NCBI GenBank assembly: GCA_038142525.1
Contig: JAYQKE010000014.1
Coordinates: 7,309-71,308, forward strand
Origin: Rickettsiales bacterium
GTDB taxonomy: Bacteria; Pseudomonadota; Alphaproteobacteria; Rickettsiales; UBA1997
Direction: 5' to 3'
DNA: 64,000 nt
Shown here: one piece after another, positions 11,042 to 61,809 of the stretch
Numbering within the stretch: position 1 is the first letter of the stretch
How the letters are laid out: each line of letters begins with the position of its first letter
Notes under the pieces: model-generated
Told to the model about the DNA's origin: nothing
Databases searched by the model: none
The model's input: only the letters and a program-made list of their open reading frames with translations
Program-made: the position numbers and the translations under genes

Positions 11042-12004
11042 ATGGCAACCCAGCAATCATTTTTTTCATTAGCAATTTCTGGTAGAAAATTAAGAGCGGA
11101 GAAGTTTCTTAATCAAATGACGGATATTATTCCATGGCAAAGATTGATTGATAAGATAGAGCCTTTTTATCCTAATGGTACTAGTGATTACGGTGGCAGG
11201 AAGGTGACAGATTTATTATTAATATTTAAGATTCATTTGTTACAGCAGTGGTTTGGTCTTAGTGATCCAGCTATGGAGGATGCTATATATGATAGAATAA
11301 GTTTTCAAAAATTCTTAAATATTGATATTGGTATTGATAATGTTCCGGATGAGACTGTGATATTGAGATTCCGTCATTTATTGGAAAAGCATAATTTATC
11401 GTCGATTATATTTAACGAGGTAAATTCATATCTTGAAGAGAATGATCTTTTGTTGAAGGAGGGTACGATAACTGATGCGACATTAATATCTGCTCCAACT
11501 AGTACAAAAAACAAGAAGAGGAAAAGGGACCAAGAGATGTCTTCTACCAAGAAAGGGAAGAATTATTATTTTGGCATGAAGTCTCATATTGGTGTGCAAA
11601 CTAAGGGTAAGCAAATTATTCATTCTATTGTCACGACGACAGCTAAAGATCATGATTCTACTAAAACAGAGGAGTTATTACATGGTGATGAAACTTCTTT
11701 ATTTGGTGACAAGGCCTATGATGATAAGGCAATAAAAAGATTTTGTAGGAATCACAATATATTTTATGGTATAACCAATAGAGCTAAATCTAACAAAAAA
11801 CTTTCAAATAAGCAAAAAAAGAGGAATAAACAATTTTCATCAGTTCGAGCTAAAGTTGAACATCCATTTCAAATTATAAAGCATCTTTGGGGCTATAGAA
11901 AGGTTAGATATAATGGTTTACAAAAGAATACTAATCAATTACAAATGCTATCATCCCTTGCTAATCTCTATATGGTTAGAAAAATACTACCAAATACAGC
12001 GTAA
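11042..12004 (+). CDS. IS5-family (IS5 group) DDE transposase, intact
   Basis: 320 aa, clearly similar along its length to E. coli IS5 InsH (..IIPWQRL..IEPFYP..AMEDA..RFRHLLE..DATLI.AP.STKN..HFGMK.HIG..VEHPF..). It has one substitution (KGKQII) relative to the other copies. Confidence 0.95.
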   Translation: MATQQSFFSLAISGRKLRAEKFLNQMTDIIPWQRLIDKIEPFYPNGTSDYGGRKVTDLLLIFKIHLLQQWFGLSDPAMEDAIYDRISFQKFLNIDIGIDNVPDETVILRFRHLLEKHNLSSIIFNEVNSYLEENDLLLKEGTITDATLISAPTSTKNKKRKRDQEMSSTKKGKNYYFGMKSHIGVQTKGKQIIHSIVTTTAKDHDSTKTEELLHGDETSLFGDKAYDDKAIKRFCRNHNIFYGITNRAKSNKKLSNKQKKRNKQFSSVRAKVEHPFQIIKHLWGYRKVRYNGLQKNTNQLQMLSSLANLYMVRKILPNTA

Positions 12005-15298: not shown

Positions 15299-16650
15299 GG
15301 AACCTCTGATTTTCCTATTTAATTTTGTCTATTTTTTCATTTTTCAGAAAAAATTTTTATAATTTGGATAAAGATTGCTAATTTTGTTAAAAATTAACAA
15401 TCTTTATCCAAATTTAGACATTATTTGTGGTAATTTCTCTAGTTTCTTGTCTAATTTTACCATTTTTGGCTAAATTAGACACATTTATCCCTTGTTACGC
15501 TGTATTTGGTAGTATTTTTCTAACCATATAGAGATTAGCAAGGGATGATAGCATTTGTAATTGATTAGTATTCTTTTGTAAACCATTATATCTAACCTTT
15601 CTATAGCCCCAAAGATGCTTTATAATTTGAAATGGATGTTCAACTTTAGCTCGAACTGATGAAAATTGTTTATTCCTCTTTTTTTGCTTATTTGAAAGTT
15701 TTTTGTTAGATTTAGCTCTATTGGTTATACCATAAAATATATTGTGATTCCTACAAAATCTTTTTATTGCCTTATCATCATAGGCCTTGTCACCAAATAA
15801 AGAAGTTTCATCACCATGTAATAACTCCTCTGTTTTAGTAGAATCATGATCTTTAGCTGTCGTCGTGACAATAGAATGAATAATTGGCTTACCCTTAGTT
15901 TGCACACCAATATGAGACTTCATGCCAAAATAATAATTCTTCCCTTTCTTGGTAGAAGACATCTCTTGGTCCCTTTTCCTCTTCTTGTTTTTTGTACTAG
16001 TTGGAGCAGATATTAATGTCGCATCAGTTATCGTACCCTCCTTCAACAAAAGATCATTCTCTTCAAGATATGAATTTACCTCGTTAAATATAATCGACGA
16101 TAAATTATGCTTTTCCAATAAATGACGGAATCTCAATATCACAGTCTCATCCGGAACATTATCAATACCAATATCAATATTTAAGAATTTTTGAAAACTT
16201 ATTCTATCATATATAGCATCCTCCATAGCTGGATCACTAAGACCAAACCACTGCTGTAACAAATGAATCTTAAATATTAATAATAAATCTGTCACCTTCC
16301 TGCCACCGTAATCACTAGTACCATTAGGATAAAAAGGCTCTATCTTATCAATCAATCTTTGCCATGGAATAATATCCGTCATTTGATTAAGAAACTTCTC
16401 CGCTCTTAATTTTCTACCAGAAATTGCTAATGAAAAAAATGATTGCTGGGTTGCCATAATTATATATTTTATTTGAATTTAATATATCAATAATAAGCAA
16501 AAAAGCTAGATAAATCAAGCTTTTCTGGCTATTTTTATCAAATAAATTCAAACAAAATTTTATAAAATAACTTTGCTAAACTTTGGCAAAAATAACAAAA
16601 TTAAACAGTTTCAAATCTATAAATTAGATAATTGGTTTTTCAGAGGTTCC
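15299..16650 (-). mobile_element. IS5-family element (type A), full length 1352 bp, intact, nested in another copy
   Basis: Both termini are intact and it is flanked by a 4-bp ATTA target duplication inside the host copy. Confidence 0.93.
15495..16457 (-). CDS. IS5-family DDE transposase, intact
   Basis: 320-aa ORF identical to the consensus of the copies. Confidence 0.95.
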   Translation of the reverse strand: MATQQSFFSLAISGRKLRAEKFLNQMTDIIPWQRLIDKIEPFYPNGTSDYGGRKVTDLLLIFKIHLLQQWFGLSDPAMEDAIYDRISFQKFLNIDIGIDNVPDETVILRFRHLLEKHNLSSIIFNEVNSYLEENDLLLKEGTITDATLISAPTSTKNKKRKRDQEMSSTKKGKNYYFGMKSHIGVQTKGKPIIHSIVTTTAKDHDSTKTEELLHGDETSLFGDKAYDDKAIKRFCRNHNIFYGITNRAKSNKKLSNKQKKRNKQFSSVRAKVEHPFQIIKHLWGYRKVRYNGLQKNTNQLQMLSSLANLYMVRKILPNTA

Positions 16651-34409: not shown

Positions 34410-35761
34410 GGAACCTCTGAAAAACCAATTATCTAATTTATAGATTTGAAACTGTTTAATTTTGTTATTTTTGCCAAAGTTTAGCAAAGTTATTTTATAA
34501 AATTTTGTTTGAATTTATTTGATAAAAATAGCCAGAAAAGCTTGATTTATCTAGCTTTTTTGCTTATTATTGATATATTAAATTCAAATAAAATATATAA
34601 TTATGGCAACCCAGCAATCATTTTTTTCATTAGCAATTTCTGGTAGAAAATTAAGAGCGGAGAAGTTTCTTAATCAAATGACGGATATTATTCCATGGCA
34701 AAGATTGATTGATAAGATAGAGCCTTTTTATCCTAATGGTACTAGTGATTACGGTGGCAGGAAGGTGACAGATTTATTATTAATATTTAAGATTCATTTG
34801 TTACAGCAGTGGTTTGGTCTTAGTGATCCAGCTATGGAGGATGCTATATATGATAGAATAAGTTTTCAAAAATTCTTAAATATTGATATTGGTATTGATA
34901 ATGTTCCGGATGAGACTGTGATATTGAGATTCCGTCATTTATTGGAAAAGCATAATTTATCGTCGATTATATTTAACGAGGTAAATTCATATCTTGAAGA
35001 GAATGATCTTTTGTTGAAGGAGGGTACGATAACTGATGCGACATTAATATCTGCTCCAACTAGTACAAAAAACAAGAAGAGGAAAAGGGACCAAGAGATG
35101 TCTTCTACCAAGAAAGGGAAGAATTATTATTTTGACATGAAGTCTCATATTGGTGTGCAAACTAAGGGTAAGCCAATTATTCATTCTATTGTCACGACGA
35201 CAGCTAAAGATCATGATTCTACTAAAACAGAGGAGTTATTACATGGTGATGAAACTTCTTTATTTGGTGACAAGGCCTATGATGATAAGGCAATAAAAAG
35301 ATTTTGTAGGAATCACAATATATTTTATGGTATAACCAATAGAGCTAAATCTAACAAAAAACTTTCAAATAAGCAAAAAAAGAGGAATAAACAATTTTCA
35401 TCAGTTCGAGCTAAAGTTGAACATCCATTTCAAATTATAAAGCATCTTTGGGGCTATAGAAAGGTTAGATATAATGGTTTACAAAAGAATACTAATCAAT
35501 TACAAATGCTATCATCCCTTGCTAATCTCTATATGGTTAGAAAAATACTACCAAATACAGCGTAACAAGGGATAAATGTGTCTAATTTAGCCAAAAATGG
35601 TAAAATTAGACAAGAAACTAGAGAAATTACCACAAATAATGCCTAAATTTGGATAAAGATTGTTAATTTTTAACAAAATTAGCAATCTTTATCCAAATTA
35701 TAAAAATTTTTTCTCAAAAATGAAAAAATAGACAAAATTAAATAGGAAAATCAGAGGTTCC
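34410..35761 (+). mobile_element. IS5-family element (type A), full length 1352 bp, intact, with TSD
   Basis: Both termini are intact. TATA is duplicated at 34406-34409 and 35762-35765. Confidence 0.93.
34603..35565 (+). CDS. IS5-family DDE transposase, intact
   Basis: 320 aa with a single substitution (YYFDMK) relative to the other copies. Confidence 0.95.
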   Translation: MATQQSFFSLAISGRKLRAEKFLNQMTDIIPWQRLIDKIEPFYPNGTSDYGGRKVTDLLLIFKIHLLQQWFGLSDPAMEDAIYDRISFQKFLNIDIGIDNVPDETVILRFRHLLEKHNLSSIIFNEVNSYLEENDLLLKEGTITDATLISAPTSTKNKKRKRDQEMSSTKKGKNYYFDMKSHIGVQTKGKPIIHSIVTTTAKDHDSTKTEELLHGDETSLFGDKAYDDKAIKRFCRNHNIFYGITNRAKSNKKLSNKQKKRNKQFSSVRAKVEHPFQIIKHLWGYRKVRYNGLQKNTNQLQMLSSLANLYMVRKILPNTA

Positions 35762-42577: not shown

Positions 42578-45543
42578 ATGACAGAGCAACTAATTGAACA
42601 GGACCTAATCAGAAAACTCACAGATCTCAAATATTCCTATCGCCCAGATATTCGCGATAGAGCTACATTGGAAGCAAACTTTCGTAAAAAATTTGAAGAG
42701 CTTAATCGAGTAAATTTAACGGACGATGAATTCATTCGTTTACTTGAGCAAATTATCGTTCCAGACACTTTTGCAGCATCGCGCATTTTACGTGAGAGAA
42801 ATAGCTTTGAGCGTGATGACGGAACACCTCTTTCTTACACTTTAGTTAACATTAAAGATTGGTGCAAAAATACTTTTGAAGTAATTAATCAGCTACGCAT
42901 AAATACCGATAATAGCCATCATCGTTACGATGTGATTTTGTTAATTAATGGTGTGCCAGTAGTTCAAATTGAACTAAAAACTTTGACCATTAGCCCTAGT
43001 CGAGCAATGCAACAAATTGTTGAATATAAGAATGATCCAGGCAATGGCTACAGCAAAACTTTAATGTGCTTTATGCGACTTTTTTATTGTCAGTAATCGT
43101 AGTGACACTTGGTATTTTGCCAACAATAACAGTCGTCATTTTAATTTTGATGCTAATGAGCGTTTTTTACCTTTATATCAGTTTGCTTCTGAAGATAATA
43201 AAAAAATTACACAACTTGATAATTTTGCTGAAAAATTCTTAGCTAAGTGCACGCTTGGTCAAATGATTAGCAGATATATGGTTTTGGTAGCTAGCGAGCA
43301 AAAGCTAATGATGATGCGACCATATCAAATTTATGCGGTTAAGGCTATCGTAGAATGCATTCACCAAAATTGTGGAAATGGTTATATTTGGCATACTACT
43401 GGTAGCGGTAAAACATTAACCTCTTTTAAGGCTTCTACCTTACTTAAAGATAATCCAGATATTGAGAAATGCTTATTTGTTGTTGATAGAAAAGATCTAG
43501 ATAGGCAAACACGTGAAGAGTTTAATCGCTTTCAAGAAAACTGCGTTGAAAAAAATACCAATACTGGAAAATTAGTTGAGAGATTACTATCAGATGATTA
43601 TACCGATAAGGTAATTGTTACTACAATCCAAAAACTTGGATTAGCACTCGATGGATCAAATAAGAATAATTACAAAGAGCAATTAAAGCCTTTAAGCAAC
43701 AAAAGACTAGTCTTCATCTTTGATGAATGCCATCGCTCACAATTTGGTGAAAATCATAAAGCTATAAAAGAATTCTTTCCTAATGCTCAGCTTTTTGGTT
43801 TTACTGGAACGCCAATTTTTGATGAAAATGCTAACTATCAAAAAGTTGAAGATGGTCAAGCCTCATACAAAACAACGGGTGATATATTTCAAAAAGAATT
43901 ACATTCTTACACAATTACCCATGCTATTGAAGATCGCAATGTTTTGCAATTCCGTATTGATTACTACAAGCCAGAAGGAAATAATAAGCCAAAAGCAGGA
44001 AAGTCTCCACCTAAAAAAGCTGTTGTTGAGGAAATATTAGAAAAGCATAACGGGGCTACTGCAAATCGTAAGTTTAATGCAATATTTGCAACCGCTTCCA
44101 TTAACGAAGCTATTGCTTATTATGACCTCTTTAAAGTCATTCAGTCAGAAAAATTAGCCTCAAATCCTGATTTCCAAGCGCTAAATATTGCTTGCCTATT
44201 CTCACCGCCAGCCGAAGGAAATAAAGATGTTAAACAACTTCAAGAAGATTTACCTCAAGAAAAAATTGATAACAGGGTAGCTCCAGATGAAAAGAAAAAT
44301 GCTTTAAAAGCCATCATCAAAGATTACAACTCAAACTATAAAACTAATCACAGATCAATGAATTTGATCTTTACTATCAAGATGTGCAAAAGCGCATTAA
44401 GGATCAGCAATATCCTAACCAAGATCTATCTCACGCAGAAAAAATTGATGTAATGATCGTTGTTGATATGTTGCTTACTGGTTTTGATTCTAAATTCTTA
44501 AATACCCTCTATGTTGATAAAAATTTAAAATATCATGGTCTTATTCAGGCTTTTTCTCGTACCAATAGGGTTCTAAATGACACCAAGCCTTATGGAAACA
44601 TCCTTGATTTTTGTGGGCAAGAATCTGCCGTTAATGAGGCAGTAGCATTATTTTCTGGCGAAAAAGACGAAAATCAAGCAAGAGAAATTTGGCTAGTTGA
44701 TAAGGCGCCAGTGGTTATTGAAAAATTAGGAATTGCAGTAAAAAAACTTGAGCAATTTATGCTCTCTCAAGATTTAGAGGCAAAGCCAGAAGAGGTGGTA
44801 AATTTAAAAGGTGACGAAGCTCGAGGTCAGTTCATTAATTTATTTAAAGAAGTACAACGCCTTAAAACTGGCCTTGATCAATATACTGATTTAACCGAAG
44901 GTAATAAAAATACTATTGAGCAAGTAATTCCAAAAGAAAACTTACAAGGATTTAAAGGTGTTTATATTGAAACCATATGCGTCTTAAGACTCAGCAAGAT
45001 AAAGATAATGGAAATATAAGTGAAGAGGTTCAACAACTTGATTTTGAATTTGTATTATTTGCCTCCACCGTTATCGATTATGATTACATAATGGGGTTAA
45101 TTGCCAAATATTCTGGCGGAAAGCCAGGTAAGCACAAAATGACCCGATCTCAGTTGATTGGTTTGATACGATCTGATGCAAAATTTATGGATGATGGCGA
45201 AGATATTGTGCAATATATTAACTCACTAAAAGAAGGTGAAGCCTTAAGCGAAAAGTTAATTCGTCAAGGCTATGAAGATTTTAAAACACAAAAAAATGCC
45301 AAACAACTTGAAGAAATTGCCATCAAGCACGGAATTGAAATTAATTCACTACAAAGCTTTATCGACAATATTTTGCAAAGAATGATTTTTGATGGTGAAA
45401 AGTTAAACTATCTTTTAGCGCCTCTTGAATTAGGCTGGAAAGCCAGAACCCAAAAGGAATTAGCGCTAATGGAGGATTTAATTCCGCTTCTTAAGAAAAG
45501 AAGTAATGGGCGAGATATTTCAGGGTTGAGTGCTTATGAGTAA
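42578..45543 (+). pseudogene. hsdR: Type I restriction enzyme R subunit, at least 3 frameshifts
   Basis: Four consecutive ORFs in frames 2/3/2/1. They contain an N-terminal nuclease-like part, helicase motifs (HTTGSGKT, DECHRSQ) and a C-terminal domain. The first shift is in the T6 run at 43080-43085. Confidence 0.88.
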
Positions 45544-46735
45544 TAAAGTTAAAATAACAAAAATGAATCAAAATAAGCAGGAATTAGTGCCTAAGTTGAG
45601 ATTTCCTGAGTTTCGTGATTCTGGGGAGTGGAAAGAGAAATCGCTTAAAGATTTATTTACCATAGGAAGTGGAAGAGATTATAAGCATTTAGATAATGGC
45701 GAGATACCAGTTTATGGAACTGGTGGCTATATGTTGTCTGTAAATGATTATTTATACGATGGTGAAAGCGTGTGCATTGGTAGAAAGGGTACAATTGACA
45801 AGCCTGTTTTGTTAACTGGGAAATTTTGGACTGTAGATACGCTGTTCTATACTCATTCTTTCAAAGAATGTTTGCCAAGGTTTGTTTTATCTATATTTCA
45901 GAATATTGATTGGAAAAAACATAATGAAGCTGGAGGCGTTCCAAGTTTATCTAAAACTAATATTGAGAAGCTAAATGTAGTTATTCCAAAGCTTAAAGAG
46001 CAACAAAAAATAGCTGACTGCCTTTCTTCTATTGATGATTTAATAACAGCAGAATCTAAAAAACTTGAATCTATCAAGAATCACAAAAAAGGTTTGATGC
46101 AAAACCTATTTCCATCTGAGGGAAAAACCACTCCAAACTTTCGTTTTCCTGAATTTAAAAATGATGGTGAGTGGGAAGTAAAGCCTCTTGGTAAAATATG
46201 TAAATATTCCAATGGAGGAGGTAATGAAAATAATGTTGTAGATAATGGTAAGTACTATTTAATTTCTTTAAACAGTATTGATACCGAAGGTAATCTAAAG
46301 CCTAATATGAAAAGAGTAAATCATATAGATAATTCATTAATTAAAAATGACTTAGTAATGGTGCTGAGTGATGTTGCATATGGCAATTTTTTAGGCTTAT
46401 CAGCAATAATCCCTAACAATAACTATGTTCTAAATCAAAGAATGGCAGGTCTAAGAGTAAGGTCTAATCAAAATATTAATATTGAATATTTAAGATTATT
46501 CATAAATAACAATCAAAAATATTTTAAGCAAAAAGGTCAAGGCTCTTCTCAACAAAATCTTTCAAAACCTTCAGTGGAAAGATTTCCTATTTTTTTACCA
46601 AATAACCCAAAAGAGCAACAAAAAATAGCCGACTGCCTTTCTTCTATTGATGATTTAATTACATCGCAAGGGCAAAAAATTGAAGCACTAAAAACTCACA
46701 AAAAAGGCTTAATGCGCGACTTTTTCCAAATATAG
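45536..46735 (+). CDS. hsdS: Type I restriction-modification specificity subunit, intact
   Basis: Two target-recognition domains are separated and followed by the conserved repeat (K/P)KEQQKIADCLSSIDDLIT. The ATG overlaps the hsdR stop. Confidence 0.88.
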   Translation: MSNKVKITKMNQNKQELVPKLRFPEFRDSGEWKEKSLKDLFTIGSGRDYKHLDNGEIPVYGTGGYMLSVNDYLYDGESVCIGRKGTIDKPVLLTGKFWTVDTLFYTHSFKECLPRFVLSIFQNIDWKKHNEAGGVPSLSKTNIEKLNVVIPKLKEQQKIADCLSSIDDLITAESKKLESIKNHKKGLMQNLFPSEGKTTPNFRFPEFKNDGEWEVKPLGKICKYSNGGGNENNVVDNGKYYLISLNSIDTEGNLKPNMKRVNHIDNSLIKNDLVMVLSDVAYGNFLGLSAIIPNNNYVLNQRMAGLRVRSNQNINIEYLRLFINNNQKYFKQKGQGSSQQNLSKPSVERFPIFLPNNPKEQQKIADCLSSIDDLITSQGQKIEALKTHKKGLMRDFFQI

Positions 46736-46754
46736 ACCAAAACCACAAATCAAA

Positions 46755-47760
46755 ATGACCAAAACCCAAGAAGAAAAACAAATAATCATTTATCAAGCCC
46801 CTGACGGAAAAAGCCAAGTTTCGCTTTATGCAAAAGATGGTAATATTTGGCTTAGTCAAAAACAAATTTCTGAACTTTTTGACACCTCTTTGCCAAATAT
46901 CAATATGCATATTTCTGTAATCTTGAAAGAAGGCGAGCTGGAGAAAAATTCAGTTATTAAGTATTTCTTAACAACTGCCAAAGACGGCAAAAATTATAAT
47001 GTTGCCTTCTATTCTTTAGAAATGATTTTAGCGATTGGGTTTAGAATTCGCTCTAAAAGAGGAACGCAATTTAGAATTTGGGCAAATGGGAACCTTAAAG
47101 AATATATGATTAAAGGATTTGTGATGGATTCTAATCGCCTTAAAAACCCCGATGGAAGACCAGATTATTTTGATGAATTACTTGAGCAGATTCGTGATAT
47201 TCGCGCTTCTGAAAAAAGATTTTATCAAAAAGTTCGCGATCTTTTTGCTTTAAGCTCTGATTATGACAAAAGCGACAAAGCAACCCAAATGTTTTTTGCC
47301 GAAGCGCAAAATAAATTAATTTATGCCTCAACTGGTAAAACCATGCCCAGAATTAATTATTGCAAGGGCTGATGCCAAAAAGCCAAATATGGCTCTAACC
47401 TCTTTCAAGGGTAAAATTGTAAGAAAACAAGATATTATAATTGCCAAAAACTATTTATCTAAAGATGAGCTAGATACCCTTAATCGTTTAGTAGTAATCT
47501 TTTTAGAAACCGCAGAACTTCGTGCTAAAAACCGCCAAGATATTACTATGAAATTTTGGCAAGAAAATGTTGATCGGGTTTTATCTTCAAATGACTATAA
47601 AATTCTTAATCACAAAGGTAAAATTTCAAATAAAAAAATGGAAGAAAAGCTAAATGAAATTTATGAAGATTTTGACAATAAAAGAAAAGAATTTGAAGCA
47701 AAAATTGCCGATGAAGAAGATTTAAAAGAATTAGAAAATTTAATTAAAAATAAAAAATAA
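46755..47760 (+). pseudogene. RhuM-family protein, one frameshift
   Basis: ORFs 46755-47372 and 47323-47760 join into a RhuM-like protein (..IAIGFRIRSKRGTQFRIWAN..IRASEKRFYQKV..). It is embedded between hsdS and hsdM. Confidence 0.7.
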
Positions 47761-47764
47761 AATT

Positions 47765-49375
47765 ATGACTGAACAACAAAAAGAATTAGGAAAAACACTT
47801 TGGGCAATTGCTGATGGTTTGAGAGGGGCTATGAATGCGGATGATTTTCGTGATTATATGCTTTCCTTTCTTTTCTTGAGATATCTTTCTGATAATTATG
47901 AAGCGTGACAAAAAAAGGAGTTAGGGAAAGATTATCCTGAAAAAAATGGACATACCACTCCTTTGCAACGCTTTTACGAAGAAAATTCTGAGGATGTGAA
48001 AGATTTTGAAGATTTAATGCGTCGTCGTGTCCATTATGTTATTGAGCCGGACTACCTTTGGGGGAATATTTCCCAGATGGCCAGAATCCAAGATGGTGAA
48101 TTGCTAAATACACTTCAAGATGCCTTTAAATATATTGAAAATGAGTCTTTTGATAAAGCATTTCAAGGTCTCTTTTCTGAAATTAATTTGAATTCTGAAA
48201 AACTTGGTAAACATAACACAGAACGAAATAATAAACTATGCACTATCATCACCAAGATTGCTGAAGGATTATTAAAATTCTCTACTGCTACAGATATTTT
48301 AGGCGATGCTTATGAGTATTTAATAGGTCAATTTGCTGCTGGCTCTGGAAAAAAAGCGGGAGAATTTTATACGCCACAAGAAATTTCAACAATTTTGTCT
48401 GAACTTGTGACATTAGATGGACAAGAGCCTGCTAACGGAAAGAAAAAATATTTAGAAAGCGTGTTTGATTTTGCCTGCGGTTCTGGATCTTTGCTTTTAA
48501 ATGTTAGAGGTCAACTTGGCTCTAATGGTGTTGGTAAAATTTACGGACAAGAAAAAAATGTCACTACCTACAATTTAGCAAGAATGAATATGTTGCTACA
48601 TGGAGTAAAAGATTCTGAATTTGAAATTTACCACGGCGATACTTTAACAAATGATTGGGATATTTTAAGAGAAGCCAATCCAGCTAAAAAACCTTATTTT
48701 GATGCAATAGTTGCCAATCCACCATTTAGCTATCGTTGGAAACAAAGTGATACACTTGCAGATGATGTTCGCTTTAAAAACCATGGCTTAGCACCAAAAT
48801 CTGCTGCTGATTTTGCCTTTTTATTACATGGGTTTAACTATTTGAAGCAAGAAGGAACTATGGCAATTATATTGCCACATGGAGTTTTATTTCGTGGTGG
48901 CGCAGAAGAAAGAATTCGTCGTAAGCTTTTAGAAGACGGGCATATTGATACTGTGATTGGATTACCTTCAAATCTATTTTATTCTGCAGGAATTCCTGTT
49001 TGTATTTTGGTGGTAAAAAAATGCAAAAAACCTGACGATGTTTTATTTATTAATGCAAGCGAGGGCTTTGAAAAAGGAAAGAGGCAAAATCAGCTATTGT
49101 CTGAACATATAGAAAAAATAGTTAGCACTTATCAATTCCGCAAAGAAGAAGATCGCTACTCTAGACGCGTATCAATGGAGGAGATCAAATCCAATGATTA
49201 TAATTTGAATATTTCTCGCTATATTAGCACCGCTATCCCAGAAGAGGAAATTGATTTGGCAAAAACAAATGAAGATTTAAAGGTTATTGAAGAAAAAATA
49301 AAAACAGCGACCAATAAACATAATGCATTCTTGCAAGAGTTGAATTTGCCAATTTTACCTAGATTTAATAAATAA
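47765..49375 (+). pseudogene. hsdM: Type I restriction-modification N6-adenine DNA methyltransferase subunit, in-frame TGA at codon 48
   Basis: The ATG at 47765 (MTEQQKELGKTLWAIADGLRG..) is in the same frame as ORF 47963-49375 (..NPPF motif VANPPFSY). The TGA at 47906-47908 interrupts it. Confidence 0.88.
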
Positions 49376-53922: not shown

Positions 53923-55040
53923 GTCTTTGATAATTATAAAAATGGATAAATCTTGTTATTTGCCTCTTTAATTCTTCTATATTATCAGGAGGATTGAGAA
54001 AAATTTGTTCATATTTTACAGTTCTCCAGAATCTTTCAATAATTACATTGTCTACCCACCTACCTTTTCCATCCATTGATATTTGAATATTTCGTTTTTT
54101 TAATTCATTTATCCAATTACCGCTGGTAAATTGAGATCCTTGATCAGTATTAATAATTGTTGGAATAATTTTATGATTTTTTATTCCCTTTTTTAATATT
54201 TCAACACAATTATTAGTTTCCATAGAAATTGATAATTTTGATGCAACAACAAATCTAGAACTCCAATCAATTAGCGACATTAAATAAACAAATCCTACTG
54301 GTGTTTTGATGTAAGTTATATCAATTGCCCAAGTGTGATTTGGCTTATCTATTTTAGATTTATCTTCTAATAAATAAGGATATTTGTAATCTTTTTTATT
54401 GATGATTGTTGTCTTTTTCTTTGGATAAAGAGCTTTAATCTTTAGAACTCTCATTAATCTAAGAATCTTCTTGCGATTAATTTTATTATTATGATTTCTA
54501 TCTTGATTGATTATTTCTGTAATTCTTCTATATCCGAAAAATTGATATTTACTCCAGATATTATGAATATCTTTGCATAAACTATTAATCTTAGAAATAT
54601 CAATCCTAGATTTATAATAAAAATTAGATCTATTAATATCTAACAATCTACATCTATTTCTGACAGCTAAATTATACATATCTGATGATAATTTTAGAAA
54701 TTTGATTTTCTTAGAATAATCTAACTGTCCAGAAACTTTTTTAAGAAATCTCTTTCCATTGTTAATTGACCTATTTTCTTATATAATTTATCAATTTCTT
54801 TATCCTTCTTTTTTTGTTCTTTTTTACTTAATTTTTCTTCTTTAGATAACTTAGAATCAGAAAATATATCATTACCGCTAGCTTTAAACTGCTTAACCCA
54901 TTTATGTAATGTTGATTTAGCAATATCATATTCGCTACAAATCTGATAAATTGTATAATTTTCGGATAAATATTTCATTACAACTTTAAACTTAAAATCA
55001 GAATTATATTTTTTAATTTCTTTTGACATAATTTATTAAA
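53923..55040 (-). mobile_element. IS3-family element (type A), copy 3, truncated at both ends
   Basis: orfB lacks its last ~17 codons at the junction with the IS481 fragment. The left ~130 bp, including the terminal repeat, are missing at the junction with sucA. Confidence 0.8.
54721..55029 (-). CDS. IS3-family transposase OrfA (copy 3, in a truncated element)
   Basis: 102 aa, identical to the copy 1 OrfA. Confidence 0.8.
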
Positions 55041-57779
55041 GGCAATTCTACCAACATATTTTAAACGAAGATTAATCTTTGATTCTTCTAAAATTTCATC
55101 AAGATAATCACGAATAAAAAACCAGCTACCCATATTTTTTGGCTCTTCCTGGCACCAGATTATTTCGGTTAATTTATATTTTTGTAATTCTTTTTTAATC
55201 AATTCTGATGGAAAAGGATAAATTTCTTCCAATCTAATAATAGTAATATGATCTAATTTTTTAGCTTCTCTAGCCTCAATTAAATCATAATAGATTTTAC
55301 CAGAACATAAAATTGCCTTTTTAATTTTTTTAGTGTTAGAATTTTCAGTTAAGATTGGCTGAAATTTAGTTTTTGGAGCAAATTCTGACAATTTTGAAAC
55401 TGCTAATTTATGACGAAGTAATGATTTTGGTGACATTACAATCAAAGGTTTTCTATCTTTAGAATGAATTTGACGACGCAGGGCGTGGAAGAAATTTGCT
55501 GGATTTGTAATATTGCAAATTCTCATATTATTATCATCAGCCGCTAATTGTAAAAACCTTTCTAACCTAGCAGAAGAATGTTCTGGACCTTGTCCTTCAT
55601 AACCATGAGGAAGTAAACAAACTAAGCCAGATTTTCTCAGCCATTTCACTTCACTTGAAGCAATAAATTGATCAAAAATAATTTGTGCGCCATTAGCAAA
55701 ATCACCAAATTGTGCTTCCCAAATGGTTAAGTGTATCAGGCGAAGATAAACTATAACCATATTCAAAACCTAAAACTGCATATTCTGAAAGAATAGAATC
55801 ATAAACTTCATATCTAGCACCTTTAATATTATTTAAGGTGTCAATTCTATTACCAGTTTCATAATCGGTTAAAACAGAATGACGGTGACTAAATGTTCCC
55901 CTTCCGGCATCTTGGCCAGTAATTCTAACATTTGAACCTTCCTCAATTAAAGAGCCAAAAGCCAAAGATTCAGCAATGCCCCAATTGATTTTTTCTTCTG
56001 AATTAAATATTTCTATTTTTTGTTGAAATTGTTTAGAAATCTTAGGATTAATATTAAAATCTTCTGGAATTTCACTAATTTTAGCGAAAATATCTTTTAA
56101 TTTTTTAGTCTCAATACCAGTTTCTGGAATTTTATTATCACCATTTTTAACATTTTTCCATTCCCCTTCAAGCCAATCACCTTTTTTAGCTTGAAATTTT
56201 TCTGCTTCAGTGAAGGATTTTTCTAAATGAGAATTAAATTCATCATTTAATTTTTTAAATTCCTCCTGAGATATAGCGCCAGCAGAAATCAATTTTTCAG
56301 AATAAAGTTTCTTTAATGTAGGGTGGTTTTTAATAATTTTATACATTACTGGCTGAGTATATAAAGGCTCATCCGCCTCATTATGGCCATATCTTCTATA
56401 AAACATAATGTCTAAAATAATGTCTTTTTTGAATTTCTGACGATACGCAGCTGCTAATTTGGTAATTTTTACAACCGCCTCTACATCATCACCATTAACA
56501 TGGAAAATTGGTGCATCAATTGCTTTAGCAAGGTCGGAAGCATAGGTTGTACTACGAGAATCTTCAGGATTAGCAGTAAAACCAATTTGATTATTGGTGA
56601 TAATATGAATTACACCCCCAGTATTATATCCTTCCAAACCATTCATCATAAGATTTTCAGCAACTGAACCCTGGCCAGCAAAAGCGGCGTCGCCATGAAT
56701 TAAAATTGCCAGGGCAGAATTACGATCAGAATCATTATAAAAATCTTGTTTAGCTCTGACCCTACCACAAACAACAGAATTTACAGCTTCCAAATGGGAA
56801 GGATTAAAAGCCAAAGAAAGATCAATTTTATTGCCAGCAATTTCACGAGAATTGGCATAACCCATATGATATTTTACATCGCCAGATTTAGTGATTTCTT
56901 TTGGAATTCCAGGAGCGCCTTTAAATTCAGCAATCATTTGGGAATAGGGCTTGCCCATAACTCCAGTTAAAACATTAAGACGGCCTCTATGAGCCATACC
57001 AATGATAATTTTTTTGACTTTATTTTTGGCAGAATTATCAATAATTTCTTCAACAGCATTAATTGAACTATCGCCACCTTCAACCGAAAATCTCTTAGCA
57101 CCAGGAAATCTTTTATGCAAAAATTGTTCAAAATTTTCAGTACGAATAATATCTTTTAAAATACGAATTTGATCATCTTTAGAAATTTTTTCTGCGGTTA
57201 AATTTTCAATTTTTTCTTCCAAAAATCTTTTTTGTTCAAAATTTCTAATATATTCAAACTCAGAAGCGATTTTAGAACAATAAGTTTGATTTAATTTATT
57301 AATAATATCAGAAATTTTAGCTTTTTTAAGACCTAATTTACCTTGAAGATCGATCTCTTTATTTAATTCTTCTGGAGAAATATTATGAAATTTGGGATCA
57401 ATTTCAATTGGAAATTCTTTTTGGGCTAATTTTAAAGGATCTAAATCGGCATTTAAATGACCAAAATTTCTATAAGCTGTAATGAGATTATTGATTTTAA
57501 TTTCAAGATCAGCAGATTTACTAGTTTTTTTTGATTTTTTTCTTCAGGCTTGGCCATTGAAGAAATATCATAATTAAAATTTAAAATAGAGATATCTTTC
57601 TTGGACCAAGAAGCTCCATCCTTATCATCAATTAATTTTTCAATATCTTCTTGATTTTCATTAAAAAAATTAACCCAACTAGTGTCAATTGAAGATGGGT
57701 TTTCAAGATATTTTTGATAAATCTCGATTATAAAGGGTAAATTTGAACTAAAAAAAACTGTTTTATCTAAATGCATCAA
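55041..57779 (-). pseudogene. sucA: 2-oxoglutarate dehydrogenase E1 component: two frameshifts and loss of the last ~30 codons
   Basis: N-terminus MMHLDKTVFFSSNLPFIIEIYQKYL... The first shift is in A8/A7 runs (plus-strand T8 57525-57532, T7 57535-57541). The second is at ..[16 protein letters not shown] (~55725). The frame runs from ..KYVGRIA straight into IS3 sequence. Confidence 0.88.
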
Positions 57780-57862
57780 ATACTAAATTTATTTATTTTA
57801 TTGCTTAATTTGCAAGCAACAGATTGTAAAATATAAAATAAAATTTTCAACTATTGAGTTGT

Positions 57863-58351
57863 TCATATTCGGCGTTTATATACTTCTTTCCCCTTAGCAA
57901 GGTTAATTAAAATTTCCCAATTTTCTTTATAATCTTGTAATTTGTTTAATGATTTGTTTTCGCCCCAATTTTCTAAGTCTTCAACTGGTATTATGTAGCA
58001 ATCTCCGTTGTTAGAATCAACACCTATTATTAAATCACAATCTTTCTTAGTATATTTATACTTTCTATTTTCAGCTTGCCTAGATATTTGCTGTCCGCTT
58101 CTTGTGCCACCCGTAAAATTTAAAGAATTGTTACCAGTTCCCTTAATTTGAATCCTTAAAAGCTTTTGATAACCTCCAATATCAACTATTGCATCATATT
58201 TTGCATTCGTTACATCAACTCTTGAGCAAGGAAAGCCTGCTTTAATAACTCTTCCTACAGCTATTAATTCGTCCGCATTTCCATTCATTGGCCTAAATAA
58301 ACCTTGTTCAATATTTGTAATATTGATTATCCATTTATTATTTTCAGTCAT
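57863..58351 (-). CDS. putative Type II restriction endonuclease (small PD-(D/E)XK-like protein)
   Basis: 162 aa starting 3 bp downstream of the MTase gene. E28 .. D53/D57 .. Q68-I-K70 show PD-(D/E)XK-like spacing. The ORF reads through the element's inverted repeat and stops in the duplicated target. The function is inferred from context. Confidence 0.55.
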   Translation of the reverse strand: MTENNKWIINITNIEQGLFRPMNGNADELIAVGRVIKAGFPCSRVDVTNAKYDAIVDIGGYQKLLRIQIKGTGNNSLNFTGGTRSGQQISRQAENRKYKYTKKDCDLIIGVDSNNGDCYIIPVEDLENWGENKSLNKLQDYKENWEILINLAKGKEVYKRRI

Positions 58352-58354
58352 TAT

Positions 58355-59386
58355 TTAAGATTTTAAGGCTTTTAGAATTTCTTTTGCGATAGCTTGTATA
58401 ACAGGAACGCTTACACTGTTGCCAAATTGCTTATAAAGCGCCGATTTTGGCATATCACTTGGCAATTTAAAACTATCATTAAAACCTTGAAATCTTGCAC
58501 ATTCTCTAGGAGTTAACTTTCTAATATCTTTGTCATCAAGCACTAAAGGCACATTATGTCCGCCAGTTCCCATATTTGCGGTTAATGTAGGGCATAAATT
58601 ACTTTTATTTTCTCTTACATATTGCCTGCGCCATTGATAACAAGTATCTTGGCTTTTCATTTCTTGCTTTAAAGTATCATAATACTTTGTTTTGTTATAA
58701 TAATATGAATTGTCATTAACTTTTCTGTCAACTAAATCTTTTATAGAAAGTCTTTTATCTGTTTTTTTAGGAAATTCAAAATTATCATAATCTTTTTGAT
58801 TTAAAAAACATACAATATAAATTCTCTCTCTGTTTTGCGGTATATTTGAATATTCGCAAGTGTTCATTACTTGATATTTTATTTTATAACATAGTTCTTC
58901 CACATAACTTACAATATGTTTAAATGTTTGCCCTTGATGATGTGATTTTAAATTTTTAACATTTTCTAAAAATAAAACTCTTGGCTTTATTTCTTTTGCA
59001 ATCTTCATTAGATCAAAAAATATTGAACCCCTATCATCTTCAAAACCTTTTCTATAACCAGCAATAGAAAAAGCCTGACAAGGAAAGCCTGCTGTCAAAA
59101 TATCAACCTTTTCTAGCTTTTTAGGGTTTAAGTTTTTTATATCATCGCAAATAACTTTATGAGAAAAGTTTGCTCTGTATGTTTTACAGGCTTTTTCATC
59201 AATTTCATTTGCCCATTTTATGCTAAATCCAGCATTTTCAAAACCCAAATCAACGCCACCAATTCCCGCAAAAAGGCTCGCTACTGTAAAATGTTTTTTT
59301 CTTGCTTGATTGGTTAATTTATTCATCACTTCTCCAAAGCTATAATCCCTATCCTGTATTTCAGGTATTCTAATTGCCTGTTTCAT
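58355..59386 (-). CDS. DNA (cytosine-5)-methyltransferase
   Basis: 343 aa with motifs FAGIGG (I), GFPCQAFS (IV), ENVKNL (VI), QNRERIYIV (VIII), TPRECARFQGF (IX) and GNSVSVPV (X). Specificity unknown. Confidence 0.92.
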   Translation of the reverse strand: MKQAIRIPEIQDRDYSFGEVMNKLTNQARKKHFTVASLFAGIGGVDLGFENAGFSIKWANEIDEKACKTYRANFSHKVICDDIKNLNPKKLEKVDILTAGFPCQAFSIAGYRKGFEDDRGSIFFDLMKIAKEIKPRVLFLENVKNLKSHHQGQTFKHIVSYVEELCYKIKYQVMNTCEYSNIPQNRERIYIVCFLNQKDYDNFEFPKKTDKRLSIKDLVDRKVNDNSYYYNKTKYYDTLKQEMKSQDTCYQWRRQYVRENKSNLCPTLTANMGTGGHNVPLVLDDKDIRKLTPRECARFQGFNDSFKLPSDMPKSALYKQFGNSVSVPVIQAIAKEILKALKS

Positions 59387-59391
59387 AGTTT

Positions 59392-60345
59392 TTAGTTTAT
59401 TAAGTTATTATAGGTAATTTTAGTATTGCTTATATTTTTCAAGCAATCAACAAATCTTTCATTATTTTGTAAATGTCTTGTGTCGTATTTATAAACAAAC
59501 TCATTGCAGTATTTTTGAATATGCTTATGGCTTACCCAGTGATAAACGCCGTTAATTCCTCGCTTCAAGTGAGACCAAAAGCCCTCAATGCTGTTTGTAT
59601 GAATCTTAAAGGCTTTTCGCTCTTCATTTTGTTTATTGGTAAATCCTTGTTTTGAATATTCGCCTTGACTGTGATTTACTCTTTGGTGATTAAATCTAAA
59701 GTTCGATATTGAGTGATAAGCTTTTGACTCGTCTGTAATTAAAATATCGCCCTCTTTAAGGTTTTTATAAACCTCATTTTGCAGGGTATTAGCTTTTGCA
59801 TCTTCAACTTTAATTGCTTTAACTTTCTTGCTTTCTCTGTCAATTAAGCCAATGACGACTGCTTTTTTCTTAACTCCTTTTATTCTATCTTTCATATGGC
59901 GATTTTGTTCTTTGCCGCCAATATAAGCCTCATCAACTTCAATAATTTCACCGCTAAAAGGTTTGTTGAAATCTTTTGATTTGCAAGCCTCTCTTATTCT
60001 TTGCAAAACAAACCAAGCCGACTTTTGCGTAATTCCAACTTGATTAGCTAATTGGCAACTTGAAATTCCTTTTTTGTTTGAATTGATTAAGAATATACAC
60101 ATAAACCATTTTTGTAAACTTAATCGTGAGTCATCAAAAATTGTACCTTTTCTTATTGAGAAGTCTTTTTTGCAATCATAACAACGATTTTTCTTGAAGT
60201 TTGATTTATATTCGTTGATATGAGTTGAGCCACAAAAAGGGCAGTATTTGCTTTCGCTCCATAAGATAGATTTTAAATATTCGTGACATTTCTTTTCTGT
60301 TTTGAAAAATGCCATAAAATCCATTAAGTTTTTAAAGTTTTTCAT
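59392..60345 (-). CDS. IS1595-family (ISXO2-like) DDE transposase with N-terminal zinc ribbon
   Basis: 317 aa with CPFCGS..CYDCKKDFS (Zn ribbon), ..VDEAYIGGKE.., ..ILITDESKAYHS.. and ..HTNSIEGFWSHLKRGINGVYHWVSHKHIQKYCNEF... Confidence 0.88.
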   Translation of the reverse strand: MKNFKNLMDFMAFFKTEKKCHEYLKSILWSESKYCPFCGSTHINEYKSNFKKNRCYDCKKDFSIRKGTIFDDSRLSLQKWFMCIFLINSNKKGISSCQLANQVGITQKSAWFVLQRIREACKSKDFNKPFSGEIIEVDEAYIGGKEQNRHMKDRIKGVKKKAVVIGLIDRESKKVKAIKVEDAKANTLQNEVYKNLKEGDILITDESKAYHSISNFRFNHQRVNHSQGEYSKQGFTNKQNEERKAFKIHTNSIEGFWSHLKRGINGVYHWVSHKHIQKYCNEFVYKYDTRHLQNNERFVDCLKNISNTKITYNNLIN

Positions 60346-60381
60346 ATACTTTTTAAATAAGTTAAGTTTTATCTAATCCTT

Positions 60382-60410
60382 ATTTTACAATAGTTTAAGG
60401 TATATGTCAA
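60382..60410 (-). promoter_or_regulatory. candidate promoter for the tnp-MTase-nuclease operon, just inside the inverted repeat
   Basis: On the minus strand: TTGACA (60405-60410), a 17-bp spacer, TAAAAT (60382-60387). It is about 37 bp upstream of the transposase ATG. Confidence 0.5.
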
Positions 60411-60456
60411 GAGAAAAAAGGGGAAATAAGTATATAAACGCCTCATATTCTCTTAA

Positions 60457-61809
60457 GGAACCTCTGATTTTCCTATTTAATTTTGTCTATTTTTTCATTT
60501 TTCAGAAAAAAATTTTTATAATTTGGATAAAGATTGCTAATTTTGTTAAAAATTAACAATCTTTATCCAAATTTAGGCATTATTTGTGGTAATTTCTCTA
60601 GTTTCTTGTCTAATTTTACCATTTTTGGCTAAATTAGACACATTTATCCCTTGTTACGCTGTATTTGGTAGTATTTTTCTAACCATATAGAGATTAGCAA
60701 GGGATGATAGCATTTGTAATTGATTAGTATTCTTTTGTAAACCATTATATCTAACCTTTCTATAGCCCCAAAGATGCTTTATAATTTGAAATGGATGTTC
60801 AACTTTAGCTCGAACTGATGAAAATTGTTTATTCCTCTTTTTTTGCTTATTTGAAAGTTTTTTGTTAGATTTAGCTCTATTGGTTATACCATAAAATATA
60901 TTGTGATTCCTACAAAATCTTTTTATTGCCTTATCATCATAGGCCTTGTCACCAAATAAAGAAGTTTCATCACCATGTAATAACTCCTCTGTTTTAGTAG
61001 AATCATGATCTTTAGCTGTCGTCGTGACAATAGAATGAATAATTGGCTTACCCTTAGTTTGCACACCAATATGAGACTTCATGCCAAAATAATAATTCTT
61101 CCCTTTCTTGGTAGAAGACATCTCTTGGTCCCTTTTCCTCTTCTTGTTTTTTGTACTAGTTGGAGCAGATATTAATGTCGCATCAGTTATCGTACCCTCC
61201 TTCAACAAAAGATCATTCTCTTCAAGATATGAATTTACCTCGTTAAATATAATCGACGATAAATTATGCTTTTCCAATAAATGACGGAATCTCAATATCA
61301 CAGTCTCATCCGGAACATTATCAATACCAATATCAATATTTAAGAATTTTTGAAAACTTATTCTATCATATATAGCATCCTCCATAGCTGGATCACTAAG
61401 ACCAAACCACTGCTGTAACAAATGAATCTTAAATATTAATAATAAATCTGTCACCTTCCTGCCACCGTAATCACTAGTACCATTAGGATAAAAAGGCTCT
61501 ATCTTATCAATCAATCTTTGCCATGGAATAATATCCGTCATTTGATTAAGAAACTTCTCCGCTCTTAATTTTCTACCAGAAATTGCTAATGAAAAAAATG
61601 ATTGCTGGGTTGCCATAATTATATATTTTATTTGAATTTAATATATCAATAATAAGCAAAAAAGCTAGATAAATCAAGCTTTTCTGGCTATTTTTATCAA
61701 ATAAATTCAAACACAATTTTATAAAATAACTTTGCTAAACTTTGGCAAAAATAACAAAATTAAACAGTTTCAAATCTATAAATTAGATAATTGGTTTTTC
61801 AGAGGTTCC
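60457..61809 (-). mobile_element. IS5-family element (type A), full length (1353 bp), intact, with TSD
   Basis: Both termini are intact. TTAA is duplicated at 60453-60456 and 61810-61813. There is one extra A in a non-coding run. Confidence 0.93.
60654..61616 (-). CDS. IS5-family DDE transposase, intact
   Basis: 320 aa, identical to the copy at 15495-16457. Confidence 0.95.
   Translation of the reverse strand: MATQQSFFSLAISGRKLRAEKFLNQMTDIIPWQRLIDKIEPFYPNGTSDYGGRKVTDLLLIFKIHLLQQWFGLSDPAMEDAIYDRISFQKFLNIDIGIDNVPDETVILRFRHLLEKHNLSSIIFNEVNSYLEENDLLLKEGTITDATLISAPTSTKNKKRKRDQEMSSTKKGKNYYFGMKSHIGVQTKGKPIIHSIVTTTAKDHDSTKTEELLHGDETSLFGDKAYDDKAIKRFCRNHNIFYGITNRAKSNKKLSNKQKKRNKQFSSVRAKVEHPFQIIKHLWGYRKVRYNGLQKNTNQLQMLSSLANLYMVRKILPNTA

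Follow-up and report, generated by a model that had tools for sequence, protein, structure and literature searches.

The concept of the transporter insertion sequence (IS) is reportedly owed to Siguier, Gagnevin and Chandler (2009), and it is with elements of this kind that we compare a 2,572-bp element from a Rickettsiales bacterium (contig JAYQKE010000014.1), in which a transposase of the IS1595 family, a C5-cytosine methyltransferase (hereafter methylase) and a presumed restriction nuclease are enclosed by one pair of terminal repeats. The stretch of DNA that was analyzed, 64,000 nt long, is called the window, and all coordinates given for the element are positions in it. The element very probably represents a transporter IS made up of an IS1595 backbone and a Type II restriction-modification (R-M) module, which moved as a whole and whose cargo slot has been refilled within its clade. 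Since this kind of element is already known, the interest lies in the pattern seen at the level of the family and in an unexplained leader at the start of the methylase.

The term "transporter IS" is used in PMC3129680, and repeats of 25 bp with duplications of 8 bp characterize two IS1595-family elements with passengers, tISCpe8 and MTnSag1 (PMC5704250). Like the element of the window, both possess one IS1595-type DDE transposase, repeats of ~25 bp, an 8-bp duplication and passengers inside; however, their passengers confer lincomycin resistance or mobilization, while the window clade carries R-M pairs in a refilled slot, with a leader at the junction. R-M genes flanked by imperfect inverted repeats and an 8-bp duplication were reported by Furuta, Abe and Kobayashi (2010) for Neisseria gonorrhoeae NCCP11945 and Xanthomonas oryzae (PMC2853133). 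The N. gonorrhoeae unit, with repeats of 26 bp, combines a Type IIG gene and an S-subunit gene with a transposase-like gene (COG3677) that is probably inactive; whether that gene or the R-M genes brought the insertion about was left open by the authors (PMC2853133). The cargo of this unit (Type IIG plus S subunit) is like that of two relatives of the window element, L006 and L027 (relatives are denoted by L numbers throughout). Unlike the transposase of that unit, which was judged probably inactive, the one in the window is intact and belongs to a family with many insertions and cargo swaps.

An orthologous cargo pair with the same gene order as in the window is present in Helicobacter pylori and Candidatus Xenolissoclinum. 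There, however, the pair is chromosomal, with neither transposase nor repeats in the loci examined, and its methylase is devoid of the 32-residue leader (309 versus 343 amino acids (aa)). The H. pylori locus (lepA-M-R-flgG) seems unlike what we take to be the neighborhoods of the GCGC (hp1121/jhp1050) and ACGT (jhp0435) systems. Both of these H. pylori systems are listed in PMC3936762.

In the window clade, neither a recombinase gene nor an attC-like site was noticed by eye, no systematic search having been made. Integron cassettes are expressed from a promoter of the platform, to which the window element offers an analogy. Tn7-like defense platforms likewise combine a conserved mobility backbone with a slot in which unrelated modules are exchanged (PMC8649781). 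In comparison with Tn7-like platforms and integrons, the elements of the window clade are smaller (2.6-3.8 kb), usually with two cargo genes and with a single DDE transposase.

Our search of the literature for IS1595 elements with R-M or defense cargo returned only Furuta et al. (2010) as a direct precedent, ISfinder and REBASE being outside its scope. The combination of an intact single transposase, many insertions, R-M exchange, a leader and a repeat-embedded stop codon was not found described there, while some R-M-carrying members are possibly already catalogued in ISfinder. The movement of R-M systems has so far been inferred mostly from loose linkage to mobile elements. A transposase, a methylase and a nuclease within one repeat pair, with several independent insertions, would be the smallest possible autonomous vehicle, and would offer a testable route for the spread and turnover of R-M systems in small, AT-rich and IS-rich genomes.

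Structure of the element and its relatives

The element occupies positions 57871-60442, and its three closely packed genes all lie on the minus strand. Its features are as follows.

57863-57870, no strand: target-site duplication at the cargo end, TCATATTC; the same 8-mer abuts both repeats, and six relatives are arranged likewise
57871-57895, no strand: transposase-distal inverted repeat (IRR), with the single mismatch and a lost stop codon at 57886
57863-58351, minus strand: PD-(D/E)XK nuclease of 162 aa, presumed restriction endonuclease (PDDEXK_5)
58355-59386, minus strand: C5-cytosine methyltransferase of 343 aa, a core of ~310 aa with an N-terminal leader (PF00145)
59291-59386, minus strand: leader, codons 1-32 of the methylase, MKQAIRIPEIQDRDYSFGEVMNKLTNQARKKH, common to unrelated cargo methylases
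59392-60345, minus strand: IS1595-family transposase of 317 aa (DDE_Tnp_IS1595 and Zn ribbon)
60382-60410, minus strand: promoter-like site just within the near repeat (11/12 match)
60418-60442, no strand: transposase-proximal inverted repeat (IRL), from the repeat search
60443-60450, no strand: target-site duplication at the transposase end, TCATATTC, from the identity of the 8-mer

An initial annotation of this DNA had described 23-bp terminal repeats, which direct reading bears out: 57871-57893 (GGCGTTTATATACTTCTTTCCCC) and 60420-60442 agree at 22 of 23 positions, and the match can be lengthened to 25 nt (57871-57895 and 60418-60442, 24/25). This pair is the longest inverted repeat of the region. 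With up to three mismatches allowed, the repeat pattern occurs exactly twice in 64 kb, while zero occurrences were expected from 100 shuffles. The directly flanking 8-bp repeat, also described before, was found again as TCATATTC at the outer edge of both terminal repeats (57863-57870 and 60443-60450, 8/8), and the sequence expected at the site free of the element is ...CAACTATTGAGTTGT TCATATTC TCTTAAGGAACC....

No further copy of the repeat is present inside the element at up to three mismatches, in agreement with the earlier statement that there is none between transposase and methylase. The junction of these two genes was also considered as a vestigial internal repeat, and this was rejected, the likeness being partial and by eye only. 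Having one transposase copy and two repeat copies in the window, the element is not a composite transposon. Instead, its methylase and nuclease lie within the terminal repeats, and in its relatives the duplications enclose the cargo, as in a transporter IS, while the short terminal repeats and the 8-bp target duplication are those of IS1595.

The three co-directional genes, which the list of open reading frames (ORFs) and the family matches corroborate, are separated by 5 nt (transposase and methylase) and 3 nt (methylase and nuclease). A fusion of the first two by stop-codon read-through was rejected: they are in frame in L001 and L002, but the 5-nt gap of the window puts them out of frame. 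The near-consensus promoter proposed just inside the near repeat, TTGACA-17-TAAAAT (60410-60382, minus strand), matches at 11 of 12 positions and is the best of the region, where the total count of promoter-like sites is no higher than in shuffles. A TTGAC lies at an equal distance from the near repeat in L001, L017, L018, L019 and L029. The scan for promoters and terminators found no terminator-like site in the region of the element.

The transposase matches PF12762 (DDE_Tnp_IS1595) at 3.8e-35 over positions 4-153 of the 153 in the model, PF12760 (Zn_ribbon_IS1595) at 5.9e-9, and the NCBIfam model transpos_IS1595 (NF033547) at 2.4e-51, with 174.7 bits against a cut-off of 75. Its zinc-ribbon cysteines C35, C38, C55 and C58 are invariant in 13 transposase relatives. 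D138, D205, E254 and K261, which we take to be the catalytic residues from their position and from the family motif (D, D, E/N/H, and K/R seven residues on), are all present in the window, and the corresponding columns are kept in the 13 relatives, with the exceptions of L029 (D205Y) and L019 (E254K).

Relatives were collected by transposase scans of genome, metagenome and viral contigs and by looking up the contigs of protein homologues. They amount to ~20 loci with transposases 49-91% identical to that of the window, and at all of them further genes follow directly after the transposase, mostly 1-5 nt past its stop or overlapping it (19 nt in L017). Not one of the ~20 loci is a cargo-less copy with the far repeat straight after the transposase; according to the initial annotation, copies with the same repeats but without methylase and nuclease would have made the distal repeat a chance match. 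At loci whose contig includes both ends of the element, transposase and cargo are enclosed together by repeats like those of the window. Perfect 8-bp duplications surround transposase plus cargo in six independent insertions, which supports the earlier proposal that the whole 2.57-kb unit moved as one piece:

L001: GAAAAGTT
L014: CACAAAAC
L004: ATAAAAAA
L006: GTTATAGC
L018: GGAATTAT
L025: ATTTTTAT

The duplication of L029 is T-rich and matches at 7 of 8 positions, and a target duplication is absent at L002, L019 and L027. In L002 (positions 150-260), the near repeat abuts the remnant of another copy, consisting of a transposase 3' end and the first 14 codons of a leader, which suggests a nested insertion or an IS-mediated rearrangement.

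Some copies are surrounded by phage-type genes, namely L018 (Bro-N, RusA and lysozyme), a JGI contig (terminase) and L014 (IMG/VR), and such surroundings, judging by gene content, may offer a possible route between cells. Plasmid records contained only transposase relatives of less than 40% identity, among them three distant copies with other genes downstream of the transposase; phage records contained none, and further scans of viral contigs returned nothing additional.

Movement as a unit and present mobility

According to the mechanism that we propose, the single DDE transposase would recognize the 25-nt repeats and insert the DNA between them with an 8-bp target duplication, and the whole unit entered the spacer ~85 bp upstream of sucA by transposition, as structure and comparison show. 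The three genes would be read as one operon from the promoter just within the near repeat, an order in which the methylase would be made before the nuclease. The resident R-M pair might then restrict unmethylated incoming DNA and penalize loss of the element, effects of restriction and addiction that we infer from general R-M biology.

Several points count against a transporter IS that works in this way. Enzymatic activity, a methylation motif and transposition are all predicted from sequence, and none was observed. No empty site was retrieved. The distal repeat is mutated, and the nuclease carries an eight-residue C-terminal extension. The structure model of the nuclease is of only moderate quality (mean predicted local distance difference test score, pLDDT, of 66), its best fold match is a homing endonuclease, and its homologues are labelled intron-associated by NCBI. 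The function suggested for the leader is a guess, with no match in Pfam or PDB. Moreover, the exact element is found at one site only (23 contigs) and once in the window, and current mobility is unsupported.

This last point leads to the alternative that survives best, in which the unit arrived by transposition and is now immobile, being kept, if at all, for a useful or addictive R-M pair, with the transposase as a passenger. In the public collection, 93 indexed blocks contain the exact transposase sequence, and in each of the 23 contigs that were read (given as five places) the element occupies the same site upstream of sucA; the further copies that the initial annotation had suggested looking for were thus not encountered, and nothing indicates that transposition is ongoing in this organism. 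The presence of only one copy in the window and the point mutation of the distal repeat agree with this. According to their sequences, immobilization with the cargo retained does occur in the clade, as in L019 (4915-7980) the E254K change is accompanied by a far repeat that is degenerate and by the lack of a duplication, and in L029 (4415-7462) the transposase has D205Y, while the methylase and nuclease genes of both are intact. On the other hand, the transposase ORF of the window is intact with all its catalytic and zinc-ribbon residues, the repeats still match at 24 of 25 positions beside a perfect target duplication, and no difference within the element is private to the window when it is compared with five aligned metagenome contigs. 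Immobility is a serious possibility, which we hold only tentatively.

Cargo exchange and the leader

Beyond its arrival as a unit, the reading as a transporter IS includes a slot that has been refilled, and the cargo of the clade speaks to this. At least eight different methylase/nuclease pairs, that of the window included, or else toxin-antitoxin-like genes occupy the slot:

C5 methylase (343 aa) and PDDEXK_5 nuclease: window, L018
C5 methylase (307 aa) and a 200-aa protein with a weak BsaWI-like match: complete in L001, L014 and L009; L008 and L012 end inside the methylase
D12-class adenine methylase and a 263-aa protein: L002, L004
N6_Mtase/Eco57I-type protein and S subunit-like protein: L006, L027
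C5 methylase (452 aa) and NgoBV-family nuclease: L019 and a JGI contig
C5 methylase (366 aa) and IceA-family nuclease: L025
C5 methylase (419 aa) and MwoI-like nuclease: L029
N4/N6 methylase and HNH nuclease: L005
SocA/Panacea antitoxin-like gene (non-R-M): L017, L005
M78 peptidase gene (non-R-M): L030

Unrelated cargo follows transposases that are close to one another, with identities of 91% between the window and L017, 92% between L001 and L004, 88% between L018 and L029, and 92% between L030 and L005. Conversely, the window and L018 share their cargo with transposases that are only 63% identical. At the level of DNA, the window and L017 are homologous (80-95%) from the near repeat through the whole transposase gene, beyond which the homology ceases. 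Taken together, these comparisons indicate that cargo is exchanged repeatedly on a conserved backbone.

A leader of ~30 residues opens the first cargo gene in nearly all elements with R-M cargo, and its consensus reads M-K-Q-(R)-A-I-R-I-P-E-I-Q-D-R-x-(Y/M)-(S/N)-F-x-E-V-(I/M)-x-x-L-(T/C). It is fused to five kinds of C5 methylase and to the D12 adenine methylase, and in L006 it precedes the N6 methylase as a small ORF of its own. Elements whose cargo is not R-M lack it, and it is not evident in two R-M-type cargos, those of L027 and L005. The orthologues outside IS elements (H. pylori and Xenolissoclinum) lack it as well and start at the equivalent of residue 33-35 of the window protein.

Between elements, the leader shows 0.6-0.9 synonymous differences per site, which is near saturation, and only 0.2-0.3 non-synonymous ones, suggesting a constraint on the peptide and not on the DNA alone. 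Since it is conserved at the amino-acid level, translational coupling by itself would be insufficient to account for it. The leader had no significant match in Pfam or PDB, and a leader profile (padded query) run against an index of 5.8 billion proteins returned six short ORFs while also missing the methylase of the window itself, and thus gives no information on where the leader occurs outside IS elements. By inspection, the leader resembles the beginning of DNA-binding domains of the ribbon-helix-helix or XRE type, a likeness on which no conclusion is based. Some methylases with N-terminal extensions regulate promoters by feedback. Our guess is that the leader is an element-specific regulatory or adaptor peptide, which would link the expression or action of the methylase to the IS backbone and might for instance exert feedback on the promoter of the near repeat. 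As a shared feature it could reveal how two selfish entities, the R-M pair and the IS, are regulated jointly.

The far end of the slot also has a common design. In L001, L014, L002 and L004, GGG-AAA-TAA closes the last cargo gene, the TAA being within the far repeat (GGGGAAATAAG), and in L018 a TAG abuts the far repeat. The far repeat of the window reads GGGGAAAGAAG, with GAA where the relatives have TAA, and the single T-to-G change responsible (plus-strand position 57886) is the sole mismatch between the two repeats. As the initial annotation had noted, the nuclease ORF consequently passes through the distal repeat and ends at a TGA in the duplicated target; the dependence of its last residues on the insertion site is, however, a result of the lost stop and not a designed feature, given that the relatives stop at TAA. 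The loss adds eight residues to the nuclease (EVYKRRI plus stop in the target duplication), whose orthologues are 154-156 aa long in comparison with 162 aa in the window. The 162-aa form is listed at all five public places of the element, which appear to share the change.

A broader proposal would make the clade a dedicated plug-and-play R-M carrier, an integron-like exchange system in miniature with the leader as a platform adaptor for any methylase. The leader might then repress the promoter of the terminal repeat, or contact the transposase, coupling methylation, expression and transposition; the stop codon embedded in the repeat would close whichever nuclease gene enters the slot; and the elements would spread through endosymbiont-like bacteria and their phages. 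We consider this proposal rather unlikely as it stands.

The R-M pair and the surrounding sequence

In its role as cargo of a transporter IS, the pair of the window has the features of a Type II system. The methylase matches PF00145 over the full model (1-324 of 324) at 1.5e-94 and TIGR00675 at 7e-101. Its nearest solved structure is M.HhaI (4.8e-60, query residues 36-338), with an alignment that covers the FxGxG, PCQ, ENV and QxRxR regions, and from residue 35 to its end it is 59% identical to a C5 methylase of 309 aa from H. pylori. The nuclease matches PDDEXK_5 at 4.5e-9, above the curated cut-off of Pfam. Among diverse homologues, D53, R84 and G86 are invariant, E28, K70 and D106 are nearly so, and position 68 is Q or E, whereas in 29 close homologues E28, D53, Q68, K70, R84, G86 and D106 are all invariant. 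A complete methyltransferase domain next to a nuclease with a predicted catalytic fold of the restriction type agrees with Type II R-M.

Several hundred homologues of the nuclease were found, many of them 60-88% identical, in H. pylori, Rickettsiales, Gracilibacteria and others; the orthologues of H. pylori and Xenolissoclinum are ~72-73% identical, and the H. pylori cluster comprises 449 member sequences. In H. pylori and Candidatus Xenolissoclinum, the nuclease lies directly downstream of a 309-aa C5 methylase and overlaps it, with no transposase, while in L018 a C5 methylase and the orthologous nuclease follow a transposase 63% identical to that of the window. Sequence and distribution give the pair the appearance of an ordinary Type II R-M module that has spread horizontally, and the nucleases of named restriction-enzyme families in sister elements (NgoBV, MwoI, IceA and, weakly, BsaWI) support a genuine R-M cargo. 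In a variant element (L032, ENA ERZ27284446), the methylase carries S227* and the nuclease P41H while the transposase is unchanged; this single observation is consistent with what would be expected if the nuclease were harmful without the methylase.

It might be argued instead that the nuclease is of a homing type or otherwise non-restricting, or has been inactivated by its C-terminal extension, so that the methylase would be an orphan or epigenetic enzyme. The intron-encoded I-Ssp6803I is both the protein around which the PDDEXK_5 family was built and the best fold match of the AlphaFold model (E 2.3e-4; moderate, mean pLDDT 66), NCBI names the homologues "group I intron-associated PD-(D/E)XK endonuclease", and a methylase-null variant does exist in the population. 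However, an Rfam scan of 56500-61800 found no group I intron and, except for hairpin noise, no family at E ≤1, and the nuclease gene is next to or overlaps a C5 methylase gene in all contexts examined, always behind it; because of this operon position and the missing intron, the intron-associated label does not fit here, and the nuclease family seems to be currently mislabelled. In addition, identities of 60-88% across Helicobacter, Rickettsiales and Gracilibacteria are typical of horizontally spread R-M pairs, and the methylase-null variant has the P41H change in its nuclease as well. A non-restricting nuclease is thus improbable. As for an IS1595 element that merely landed beside an existing R-M pair, with the distal and direct repeats coincidental or a solo repeat, this is effectively refuted: short AT-rich repeats are common in an AT-rich genome and L002 has no duplication, but the 23-mer is expected zero times in shuffles at up to three mismatches, only a 5-nt spacer with no repeat copy separates transposase from methylase, and the same architecture recurs with different cargo and perfect duplications in six independent insertions.

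For the pair as a Type II module carried by the transporter IS, a candidate recognition site was sought in the composition of the window. A site based on M.HhaI was rejected, as only the catalytic core, and not the recognition region, can be aligned with it, and GCGC is not depleted. ACGT is strongly depleted, with 8 sites against 40.7 +/- 6.4 in dinucleotide-preserving shuffles (7035, 8022, 9421, 20305, 21839, 42790, 43511 and 52647; none within the element), while no other 4-bp palindrome, GCGC included, shows a comparable depletion. Around the orthologous pairs in L018 and L024, ACGT is not depleted, and it is depleted on the phage-like contigs L030, L005 and L027. As a lead, ACGT could be the sequence recognized by an R-M system that acts on this genome. 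CCGG was observed once against ~10 expected on L008 and L009, both of which carry the 307-aa C5 methylase, and this hints at a CCGG-type specificity of that cargo.

The gene next to the cargo end is sucA (2-oxoglutarate dehydrogenase E1; 54978-57779, minus strand), which is split into several ORFs in the window. Its frameshifts and substitutions, for instance in the A-run at 57542 and through one additional base at 55733, are private to the window, and in five metagenome contigs 99.7% identical to it, sucA is a single ORF of 937 aa beside the element; the breaks are either strain-specific decay or errors in the record. A Type I R-M locus (42578-49375) has hsdR in four frame pieces, with 91-96% amino-acid identity to a relative of 988 aa, while hsdS (401 aa) and hsdM (470 aa) seem to be intact, as does a gene of the RhuM family. 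The initial annotation had taken intact element genes amid decay as a sign of recent arrival or selection; the genes of the element are indeed intact, but the argument is weakened, since the state of sucA in the metagenome contigs makes the contrast at least partly peculiar to this record.

A promoter-like site, TTGAAA-16-TACAAT (57823-57850, minus strand), is located 13 bp beyond the cargo end and upstream of sucA. The insertion point may thus be just upstream of a candidate sucA promoter, with the element transcribed toward sucA and no terminator-like site between them.

On the other side, a near-perfect hairpin of 25 nt with a 4-nt loop (60520-60573) lies between the element and a copy of an IS5-family element. 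Four ORFs of 320 aa are present in the window (11042-12004, 15495-16457, 34603-35565 and 60654-61616), at least one of which is annotated as IS5 family. The public contigs with the element all end ~110-250 nt upstream of the transposase, within ~200 nt of the IS5 copy, possibly as a result of the repeated nature of IS5.

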